A DNA stretch of 64,000 nucleotides, taken from the NCBI RefSeq assembly GCF_003790525.1, contig NZ_CP033635.1; one strand, 5' to 3'. The notes under the pieces were generated by a model that did not search any database, had not been told where the DNA came from, and saw only the letters and a list, made by a program, of their open reading frames with translations. This document shows positions 46,606 to 51,384 of this stretch, piece by piece (within the stretch, counting starts at the first letter, position 1; every line of letters begins with the position of its first letter). The translations under genes were made by a program, and so were the position numbers. The DNA comes from Escherichia coli (GTDB taxonomy: Bacteria; Pseudomonadota; Gammaproteobacteria; Enterobacterales; Enterobacteriaceae).

Positions 46606-47855
<1,250 letters not shown>

Positions 47856-48032
47856 TAGAGTAAGTAACTGGTTAATTTACATTCTGGTCGCGTGCGCAAA
47901 TACGCTTTTCCTCACACAGTTGTCAAGTGTTACGTTTAGATAATTGCTATCCGGAAAAGCATCTGCTATTTATAGCGGCCTCATTTTTCCCCCGAACATG
48001 GGGATCGATAGTGCGTGTTAAGGAGAAGCAAC

Positions 48033-48488
48033 ATGCAAGAAGGGCAAAACCGTAAAACATCGTCCCTGAGTATTCTCGCCATCGCTGGGGTGGAGCCATA
48101 TCAGGAGAAGCCGGGCGAAGAGTATATGAATGAAGCCCAGCTGGCGCACTTCCGTCGTATTCTGGAAGCATGGCGTAATCAACTCAGGGATGAAGTCGAT
48201 CGCACCGTTACACATATGCAGGATGAAGCAGCCAACTTCCCGGACCCGGTAGACCGTGCAGCCCAGGAAGAAGAGTTCAGCCTCGAACTGCGTAACCGCG
48301 ATCGCGAGCGTAAGCTGATCAAAAAGATCGAGAAGACGCTGAAAAAAGTGGAAGACGAAGATTTCGGCTACTGCGAATCCTGCGGTGTTGAAATTGGTAT
48401 TCGCCGTCTGGAAGCGCGCCCGACAGCCGATCTGTGCATCGACTGCAAAACGCTGGCTGAAATTCGCGAAAAACAGATGGCTGGCTAA
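48033..48488 (+). CDS. dksA: RNA polymerase-binding transcription factor DksA
   Basis: Known 151-aa DksA begins [20 protein letters not shown] at ATG 48033 with AGGAG Shine-Dalgarno at 48021..48025; C4 zinc finger ([25 protein letters not shown]). Confidence 0.95.
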
Positions 48489-48516
48489 TTACAGCCGTTC
48501 CATCACGTTTACCACA

Positions 48517-48545
48517 GGCGGGAAATGCTCCCGCCTTATTTTTTG
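48517..48545 (+). terminator. Intrinsic terminator downstream of dksA, immediately upstream of gluQ
   Basis: GGCGGGA-AATGC-TCCCGCC followed by TTATTTTTTG, 29 nt after the dksA stop and 10 nt before the gluQ ATG. Confidence 0.65.
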
Positions 48546-48554
48546 TTCAAAGAG

Positions 48555-49451
48555 ATGACAGACACACACTATATTGGCCGCTTCGCCCCCTCTCCTTCCG
48601 GCGAGCTTCATTTTGGTTCTCTGATTGCCGCGCTTGGCAGCTATTTGCAGGCTCGCGCCCGGCAAGGTCGCTGGCTGGTACGCATAGAAGATATCGACCC
48701 GCCTCGTGAAGTTCCCGGTGCCGCAGAGACTATCCTGCGCCAGCTGGAACATTACGGCCTGCACTGGGACGGCGACGTTCTCTGGCAATCGCAACGTCAC
48801 CACGCCTATCGCGAAGCACTCGCCTGGTTATATGAGCAAGGACTAAGTTATTACTGCACCTGCACGCGTGCGCGTATTCAAAGCATTGGCGGTATTTACG
48901 ACGGTCATTGCCGGGATTTGCATCATGGACCAGACAACGCGGCTGTGCGAATTCGGCAGTTGCATCCGGTCACGCAGTTTACTGATCAACTACGCGGAAT
49001 TATTCACGCCGACGAAAAACTGGCGCAAGAAGATTTTATTATTCATCGTCGTGATGGTTTGTTTGCCTATAACCTGGCGGTGGTGGTCGATGATCACTTC
49101 CAGGGCGTCACAGAAATTGTTCGTGGGGCAGATTTGATTGAACCGACAGTGCGACAAATCTCGCTGTACCAGCTTTTTGGCTGGAAAGTGCCAGATTACA
49201 TTCATTTACCGCTGGCGCTTAACACACAAGGCGCTAAACTTTCCAAGCAGAATCATGCGCCTGCGTTGCCGAAAGGCGATCCGCGCCCGGTGTTAATCGC
49301 GGCACTTCATTTTCTGGGTCAGCAGGTAGAAACACACTGGCAGGATTTCAGCGTCGAGCAAATCCTTCAGTCAGCCGTCAAAAACTGGACGCTGACTGCC
49401 GTGCCTGAGTCGGCAATTGTAAATTCAACATTCTCAAATGCGTCATGCTGA
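48555..49451 (+). CDS. gluQ: Glutamyl-Q tRNA(Asp) synthetase (GluRS paralog YadB)
   Basis: ORF track starts at 48525, but that ATG lies in the loop of the dksA terminator hairpin; the recalled 298-aa GluQ-RS begins [30 protein letters not shown] at 48555. Confidence 0.85.
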
Positions 49452-49510
49452 GCTATGATTAGCCGCTATTTTTTTGTCCTGAATGATGTTTGACACTACC
49501 GAGGTGTACT

Positions 49511-50908
49511 ATTTTTACCCGAGTCGCTAATTTTTGCCGCAAGGTGCTAAGCCGCGAGGAAAGCGAGGCTGAACAGGCAGTCGCCCGTCCACAGGTGACG
49601 GTGATCCCGCGTGAGCAGCATGCTATTTCCCGCAAAGATATCAGTGAAAATGCCCTGAAGGTAATGTACAGGCTCAATAAAGCGGGATACGAAGCCTGGC
49701 TGGTTGGCGGCGGCGTGCGCGACCTGTTACTTGGCAAAAAGCCGAAAGATTTTGACGTGACCACCAACGCCACGCCAGAGCAGGTGCGCAAACTGTTCCG
49801 TAACTGCCGCCTGGTGGGTCGCCGTTTCCGTCTGGCTCATGTGATGTTTGGCCCGGAGATTATCGAAGTTGCGACCTTCCGTGGACATCACGAAGGTAAC
49901 GTCAGCGATCGCACGACCTCCCAACGCGGGCAAAACGGTATGTTGCTGCGCGACAACATTTTCGGCTCCATCGAAGAAGACGCCCAGCGCCGCGATTTCA
50001 CTATCAACAGCCTGTATTACAGCGTGGCAGATTTTACCGTCCGTGATTACGTTGGCGGCATGAAGGATCTGAAAGACGGCGTTATCCGTCTGATTGGTAA
50101 CCCGGAAACGCGCTACCGTGAAGATCCGGTACGGATGCTTCGCGCGGTTCGTTTTGCCGCCAAATTGGGCATGCGCATCAGCCCGGAAACTGCCGAGCCG
50201 ATCCCACGCCTGGCAACCTTACTGAACGATATCCCACCGGCACGTCTGTTTGAAGAATCGCTGAAACTGTTGCAAGCGGGCTACGGTTACGAAACTTATA
50301 AGCTGCTGTGTGAATATCATCTGTTCCAGCCGCTGTTTCCGACCATTACCCGCTACTTCACGGAAAATGGCGACAGCCCGATGGAGCGGATCATTGAACA
50401 GGTGCTGAAGAATACCGATACGCGTATCCATAACGATATGCGCGTGAACCCGGCGTTCCTGTTTGCCGCCATGTTCTGGTACCCATTGCTGGAGACGGCA
50501 CAGAAGATCGCCCAGGAAAGCGGCCTGACCTATCACGACGCTTTCGCACTGGCGATGAACGACGTGCTGGACGAAGCCTGCCGTTCACTGGCGATCCCGA
50601 AACGTCTGACTACGCTAACTCGCGATATCTGGCAGTTGCAGTTGCGTATGTCCCGTCGTCAGGGAAAACGCGCATGGAAACTGCTGGAGCATCCTAAGTT
50701 CCGTGCGGCATACGACCTGTTGGCCTTACGAGCCGAAGTTGAGCGTAACGCTGAACTGCAACGTCTGGTGAAATGGTGGGGTGAGTTCCAGGTTTCCGCG
50801 CCGCCAGACCAAAAAGGGATGCTTAACGAACTGGATGAAGAACCGTCACCGCGTCGTCGTACTCGTCGTCCACGCAAACGCGCACCGCGTCGTGAGGGTA
50901 CCGCATGA
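49511..50908 (+). CDS. pcnB: Poly(A) polymerase I
   Basis: ORF track begins at TTG 49490; the established PcnB N-terminus ([19 protein letters not shown]...) starts at an AUU codon, here ATT at 49511, giving 465 aa. Start assignment rests on published knowledge, not sequence alone. Confidence 0.85.
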
Positions 50909-51384
50909 CAGTGGCGTATATTGCCATAGGCAGCAATCTGGCCTCTCCGCTGGAGCAGGTCAATGCTGCTCTGAAAGCATTAGGCGATATTCCAGAAAGC
51001 CGCATTCTTGCTGTTTCTTCGTTTTACCGCACCCCACCGCTGGGGCCGCAAGATCAACCCGATTACTTAAATGCAGCCGTCGCGCTGGAAACCACTCTTG
51101 CCCCTGAAGAGCTACTCAATCACACACAACGTATCGAATTGCAGCAAGGTCGCGTCCGTAAAGCTGAACGCTGGGGACCGCGCACGCTGGATCTCGACAT
51201 CATGCTGTTTGGTAATGAAGTAATAAATACCGAACGTCTGACCGTTCCGCACTACGATATGAAAAATCGTGGCTTTATGCTGTGGCCACTGTTTGAAATT
51301 GCGCCGGAGTTAGTGTTTCCTGATGGGGAGACGTTGCGTCAAATCTTACATACAAGAGCATTTGAAAAATTAAGCAAATGGTAA
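50905..51384 (+). CDS. folK: 2-amino-4-hydroxy-6-hydroxymethyldihydropteridine pyrophosphokinase
   Basis: 159-aa [62 protein letters not shown]..., recognised as FolK; overlaps pcnB stop by 4 nt. Confidence 0.93.

Follow-up and report, generated by a model that had tools for sequence, protein, structure and literature searches.

Which codon begins the translation of pcnB is the question raised by this locus, a stretch of 64,000 nucleotides of Escherichia coli DNA (hereafter the window, whose numbering is used throughout). The genes sfsA, dksA, gluQRS, pcnB, and folK occupy positions 47151–51384 on the plus strand, as do all features named below. The pcnB frame is closed upstream by an in-frame TGA (49484–49486; −27 from the ATT discussed here) and lies open from 49487. 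Read onwards from that stop, the codons are TGA (49484), TGT, TTG (49490), ACA, CTA, CCG, AGG, TGT, ACT, ATT (49511), TTT, ACC, CGA, and GTC. The TTG (49490–49492) is the sole start of canonical type 5′ of the ATT, and no in-frame ATG, GTG, or TTG stands between the two in the window sequence. On the 3′ side, with codons numbered from the ATT, the in-frame candidates are a GTG at codon 12 (49544–49546) and the first ATG, at codon 52 (49664–49666). A sequence-only reading of the window had proposed that pcnB lacks an in-frame ATG near its N terminus and is preceded only by the TTG at 49490; the codons match that description to the base.

The segment 49511–50908 is almost certainly E. coli pcnB, encoding poly(A) polymerase I (PAP I) and translated from the ATT initiation codon at 49511–49513; the coding sequence comprises 465 codons followed by a TGA stop at 50906–50908. 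This agrees with the earlier proposal that the ATT corresponds to the published start, as the RefSeq pcnB coding sequence begins at ATT in three genomes: NZ_CP033850, which is identical to the window; NC_000913.3, the K-12 MG1655 genome, where b0143 runs from 157729 to 159126; and a third strain, NZ_AP027764. In the window-identical locus L001, pcnB is locus 2712, with protein WP_010723084.1. The 465-residue product of the window is 100% identical to K-12 PcnB, and the two coding sequences differ at only 46 nucleotides, all of them synonymous and none at the start site. K-12 also shares the 70 nucleotides around the start and the gluQRS-pcnB-folK neighbourhood, so that b0143 is the same gene with the same synteny and the same ATT start.

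Profile searches concur on the identity of the protein. Against the NCBIfam PcnB equivalog NF008634 (cut-off 702 bits) it reaches 997.1 bits, its residues 1–464 aligning to profile positions 1–468 of 469; against TIGR01942 (cut-off 305.65 bits) it reaches 523 bits. Structures 3AQK, 3AQL, and 3AQM in the PDB match residues 28–442 in ATT-based numbering, the crystal constructs beginning at residue 28. At the nucleotide level, a 501-nucleotide piece around the start matches E. coli FDAARGOS_497 at 100% identity, and of 5426 complete E. coli genomes 5424 carry it, only 745 of them at an identity of at least 99%; the 70 nucleotides at 49481–49550 are identical in 5416 of the 5424.

Published promoter mapping provides an internal check on the position of the start. 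Transcripts of the sigma-S promoter pS2 begin 263–265 nucleotides before the ATT, a short way 3′ of a −10 element reading TAAACT (PMC2939334). In the window, these distances place the transcription starts at about 49246–49248, next to a TAAACT at 49235–49240 within gluQRS; the pS2 coordinates therefore fit only if the ATT is the one at window position 49511.

A Shine-Dalgarno sequence, GAGGTG, occupies 49501–49506, its six bases complementary to the 3′ end of 16S rRNA, and is separated from the ATT by the 4-nucleotide spacer TACT (49507–49510). Pairing was predicted between the 16 nucleotides 5′ of each candidate start and the 16S rRNA 3′ end, which we take to be GAUCACCUCCUUA. The ATT at 49511 reaches −9.8 kcal/mol, within the top 1% of window positions. 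The corresponding values are −1.5 kcal/mol for the TTG at 49490 (72nd percentile of window positions), +0.9 kcal/mol for the GTG at codon 12, −7.9 kcal/mol for a GTG at codon 31 (49601), and −2.9 kcal/mol for the ATG at codon 52, which is average for the window. By these predictions and the alignments described below, the ATT is the only candidate with a conserved and properly spaced Shine-Dalgarno sequence. Secondary sources, PMC3561954 and PMC9764084 among them, refer to a "poor ribosome-binding site" for pcnB; however, a perfect and invariant 6-nucleotide match is what is found, and the poverty of the site is not obvious in the sequence.

The comparison across Enterobacteriaceae draws on a scan of species-representative genomes, from which the best 80 of 452 pcnB matches were taken (86%–100% protein identity, all Enterobacteriaceae, around 30 genera). 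Together with L001 these give 81 loci, with the first residue matched serving as the anchor. In all 81 listed loci the codon corresponding to 49511 is ATT, and GAGGTG at −10 to −5 is likewise invariant (81/81), with conservation collapsing 5′ of −11. The spacer keeps its length but varies in sequence: the consensus base at its four positions is present in fractions of 0.52, 0.96, 0.85, and 0.64 of the listed loci, and one E. coli strain carries C49509T within it. A chance pattern is excluded, given an ATT in 81 of 81 listed loci and an invariant GAGGTG whose predicted pairing lies in the top 1%.

Downstream of the ATT, the listed loci vary at five sites within codons 2–11 (ACC to ACT; GCT to GCA; TTT to TTC; CGC, CGT, or CGA; and AAG or AAA), every one of them third-position and synonymous. 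This synonymous-only pattern shows that the stretch is translated in the pcnB frame and excludes the GTG at codon 12 as the start. Of the first 15 PcnB residues only the 14th varies, between Ser, Asn, and Thr. Between this N-terminal peptide and the catalytic domain lies a hypervariable acidic linker (residues 16–28). The near-invariant 15 residues themselves are missing from the crystal structures; distant orthologues carry related peptides of basic, amphipathic character.

Upstream of the ATT the picture is one of disorder. In 43 of the 81 listed loci, the open frame that precedes the ATT contains no ATG, GTG, or TTG as far back as the first in-frame stop. A TTG at −21 is present in 27, namely those of Escherichia, Citrobacter, Intestinirhabdus, Phytobacter, some Kosakonia, and one Proteobacteria metagenome-assembled genome, and nine further loci carry a TTG at −30 or −33. 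An in-frame stop occurs at −15 in three loci and at −18 in one, with no near-cognate codon between the stop and the ATT. Single-base length differences just 5′ of the Shine-Dalgarno sequence, such as ACACTAC-GAGGTG in Enterobacter, put the upstream codons out of frame. Taken together, the comparative data independently point to the ATT at 49511 and away from the TTG at 49490.

Two of the listed loci depart from this scheme. Salmonella enterica subsp. diarizonae (L021) and arizonae (L022) have an in-frame ATG at −21 relative to the ATT at locus position 1501, in the place of the E. coli TTG; this ATG has no visible Shine-Dalgarno sequence, and GAGGTG-N4-ATT is intact in both. With these two loci in view, the start codon could differ in Salmonella.

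How far the ATT start extends outside the Enterobacteriaceae was assessed from six loci, a small sample, obtained by searching cluster representatives (50% identity) with HMMER and looking up their contigs. Three orthologues of 62%–67% identity read GAGGTG-TACC-ATT (L082), GAGGTG-TCCT-ATT (L083), and GAGGTG-TATT-ATT (L085), and an orthologue of 55% identity (L084) has AGAGGA followed, after 7 nucleotides, by ATT ATT. The called protein of L083 begins at the ATT, the L082 call has been extended to an upstream ATG, and the L085 call has been cut back to a downstream GTG. In orthologues of 55%–67% identity the N-terminal peptide is kept as protein, for example ILKRITQLYRSL and IITKVINLYHRLF, with conservative replacements and the frame preserved. 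The pairing of pcnB with folK is also found in L082–L085 and L087. Of the two orthologues at 48% identity, L086 starts at TTG and L087 at GTG, in both cases immediately 3′ of a stop codon; neither has a clear Shine-Dalgarno sequence.

These sequences indicate that an AUU start of pcnB is not confined to E. coli, in agreement, small as the sample is, with a published statement: according to PMC3561954, phylogenetic evidence in Binns and Masters suggested AUU starts in many Proteobacteria. The same small sample points to weak starts as the norm for pcnB, and L086 and L087, two loci only, hint that this holds even where ATT is unused.

Two other placements of the start have to be weighed. Were translation to begin at the TTG at 49490, the product would have 472 residues and the ATT would be an internal isoleucine codon. 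This TTG is the first canonical-type start to follow the in-frame stop, and an ORF finder begins the gene there; moreover, a TTG, or in Salmonella an ATG, stands at −21 in 29 of the 81 listed loci. PMC3561954 is inconsistent on the matter: its introduction names UUG, its discussion AUU. The predicted pairing of −1.5 kcal/mol, however, leaves the TTG without a Shine-Dalgarno sequence, and a ribosome positioned on GAGGUG cannot place it in the P site. A codon of this kind at −21 is missing from 52 of the 81 listed loci even when the Salmonella ATG is counted as present, any canonical upstream start is missing from the 43 noted above, and some loci have in-frame stops at −15 or −18. The 21 nucleotides from TTG to ATT differ in length by single bases among the loci and vary at every codon position, and RefSeq and the literature use the ATT. 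Lacking a Shine-Dalgarno sequence and conservation, and opposed by frame-breaking length changes and in-frame stops in related genera, the TTG is rejected, and its use as the start is extremely improbable.

Initiation farther downstream, at the GTG of codon 12 (49544) or of codon 31 (49601), would make the conserved block after the ATT an untranslated leader. All 80 of the 80 distinct sequences carry the GTG at codon 12; that at codon 31 has AGGUGA just upstream, hence its Shine-Dalgarno-like predicted pairing of −7.9 kcal/mol; and crystallised PAP I starts at residue 28, so that the 27 N-terminal residues are unneeded for the fold. Codon 12, however, has no Shine-Dalgarno sequence, and only 8 of 80 sequences have a GTG at codon 31. 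The exclusively synonymous third-position changes in codons 2–11, the conservation of the N-terminal peptide as protein in orthologues of 55%–67% identity, and an equivalog profile (NF008634) that begins at residue 1 all speak against a start beyond the ATT. Both GTG codons are rejected on these grounds, and a leader reading is scarcely credible. One further candidate, an out-of-frame mini-ORF of 15 codons (ATG ATG…, 49483–49530) lying over the pcnB Shine-Dalgarno sequence and start, is absent in 41 of the 81 listed loci and is probably fortuitous.

A milder variant retains the AUU as the main start and adds a second, N-terminally truncated PAP I made under special conditions from the ATG at codon 52 (49664), on a transcript from the internal sigma-S promoter pS1. 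We take this ATG to be the start proposed by Liu and Parkinson in 1989. Codons 37–48 (49619–49654), just 5′ of the ATG, show the second-lowest synonymous variation in pcnB (0.07, against 0.28 gene-wide), and pS1 and the old Liu and Parkinson start are expected within this region. pS1 is active with sigma-S in vitro, and in vivo under particular conditions, and two bands appear in anti-PAP I Western blots, from which the possibility of a shorter form was raised (PMC2939334); the same authors, however, call that form unproven and possibly unlikely. Against it, too, are the weak Shine-Dalgarno pairing, the poor conservation of the codon—many listed loci have GTG one codon earlier, at codon 51, or lack a start codon at this place—and the loss of residues 28–51 of the crystallised, structured enzyme that such a product would entail. 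The ATG is at most a possible start for a minor isoform, and a second PAP I made from it is unlikely.

With the ATT at 49511 retained as the start, a mechanism for its weakness can be outlined. GAGGUG at 49501–49506 positions the 30S subunit such that the AUU, four bases downstream, enters the P site, where the initiator tRNA pairs with it save for a mismatch at the third position. By analogy with infC, initiation factor IF3 would discriminate against the AUU complex and thereby render initiation inefficient. Inefficient initiation, in turn, limits PAP I to some tens of copies in each cell, a low level that matters because excess PAP I is toxic. The source cited for the AUU start of pcnB is Binns and Masters (2002, Mol Microbiol 44:1287), to whom secondary sources also credit its experimental mapping.

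The sequence-only reading had also suggested that AUU initiation keeps PAP I levels low, and this interpretation finds support in a series of papers that describe the AUU start of pcnB and the limit it sets on PAP I synthesis, all citing Binns and Masters (PMC2939334, PMC3561954, PMC5499595, PMC9764084, PMC4447247, PMC2830850, PMC9410913, and bioRxiv 10.1101/063800). PAP I is present at around 30–50 molecules per cell and its overexpression is lethal, the excess enzyme polyadenylating tRNAs and killing the cell (PMC3561954). In reporter assays, AUU supports around 1%–2% of the expression obtained with AUG (bioRxiv 10.1101/063800). The PAP I level is inversely related to growth rate (PMC2939334), and it may be speculated that an AUU/IF3-type mechanism contributes to this relation. 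The literature search returned no ribosome-profiling statement on the pcnB start. The AUU start of pcnB is thus already known and annotated, and the comparative data add many more genomes to the published picture without changing it.

Only two E. coli genes, pcnB and the IF3 gene infC, are confirmed to initiate at AUU; in both, the weak codon limits expression. Features common to this class are found at pcnB: the conserved N terminus has no canonical start with a Shine-Dalgarno sequence, the Shine-Dalgarno spacing is conserved, and coding evolution sets in after the AUU. The two genes differ in that infC is autoregulated, its own product discriminating against AUU, whereas pcnB encodes no initiation factor and would depend on IF3 only by analogy. 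They differ also in the codon itself, as infC uses AUU or AUC (PMC5499595), with ATA proposed in Deinococcus (PMC2830850), whereas pcnB is strictly ATT in the Enterobacteriaceae listed. In Enterococcus faecalis, a rare ATT start attenuates production of the ebpA protein (PMC4447247); this is an unrelated gene in an unrelated organism, and its likeness to pcnB is one of mechanism only.

For annotation, the consequence is that ORF finders and gene callers limited to ATG, GTG, and TTG misplace the pcnB start, either by extending it to a TTG or an upstream ATG (P0141) or by shortening it to a downstream GTG (P0003/L085). Beyond this lesson on non-canonical starts, the residual value of the locus lies in the frozen synonymous sites that follow its start codon.

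Synonymous variation was measured as the mean fraction of sequences carrying a non-majority codon, over the 276 degenerate codons whose amino acid is the same in all 81 listed sequences. Codons 2–9 (TTT ACC CGA GTC GCT AAT TTT TGC; 49514–49537) are near-frozen, with a fraction of 0.008 against a gene-wide mean of 0.28; they form the lowest 8-codon window in pcnB, and none of 100,000 random draws was as low. Even the rare arginine codon CGA is retained by all 81 listed sequences. This freezing may be a new observation. The most economical explanation is strong selection to keep the initiation region open and rich in U, so that a weak codon can be used. It is possible, though rather doubtful, that the block of around 37 nucleotides from the Shine-Dalgarno sequence to codon 9 (49501–49537) marks an undescribed sequence-specific regulatory contact on the initiation region, for which generic selection on translation-initiation regions is the alternative. 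The partner in such a contact could be a protein, an sRNA, or a ribosome-, S1-, or IF3-dependent enhancer tuning AUU initiation.

RNA folding does not account for the frozen sites, and a regulatory RNA structure around the pcnB start was considered and rejected: in the window, Enterobacter, Salmonella, and Raoultella, predicted folds of the start region gained no stability over shuffled sequence (z from −0.4 to +1.9). Among them a weak hairpin sequestering the Shine-Dalgarno sequence (−4.7 kcal/mol) recurs without reaching significance, and both of its arms are invariant, so there is no covariation to score. Nor does an Rfam family explain the freezing, Rfam giving no match at E ≤ 1 within 49300–49800.

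Upstream of the start region, a sigma-70 promoter-like site, TTCTCA-17-TATGAT, lies at 49431–49459 and overlaps the gluQRS stop. It is the sole promoter-like match within 49150–49750, where shuffled sequences give a mean of 0.4, and the block GCTGAGCTATGATTAGCCGCTATTTTTTT at this site is conserved in most genera. Judged by its sequence and conservation, it is probably pB, the major pcnB promoter. A block at 49448–49482, GCTGAGCTATGATTAGCCGCTATTTTTTTGTCC, covers the gluQRS stop and the gluQRS-pcnB spacer and is conserved in many genera although mostly intergenic; it holds the TATGAT −10 followed by a run of T. The TTG at 49490 forms the first half of a perfect TTGACA (49490–49495), the −35 consensus, with no good −10 at a distance of 16–18 nucleotides; this TTGACA is conserved only in Escherichia, Citrobacter, Phytobacter, and some Kosakonia.

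At the other end of the gene, the ATG of folK (50905–51384) overlaps the pcnB TGA in an ATGA at 50905–50908. Stop/start overlap of this type is the usual arrangement for translational coupling, and the adjacency of pcnB and folK is kept even in orthologues of 48%–62% identity. The upstream neighbour gluQRS resembles pcnB in that its longest ORF is not the annotated gene: the ORF opens at an ATG at 48525 (308 residues), and the RefSeq start is at 48555 (298 residues).
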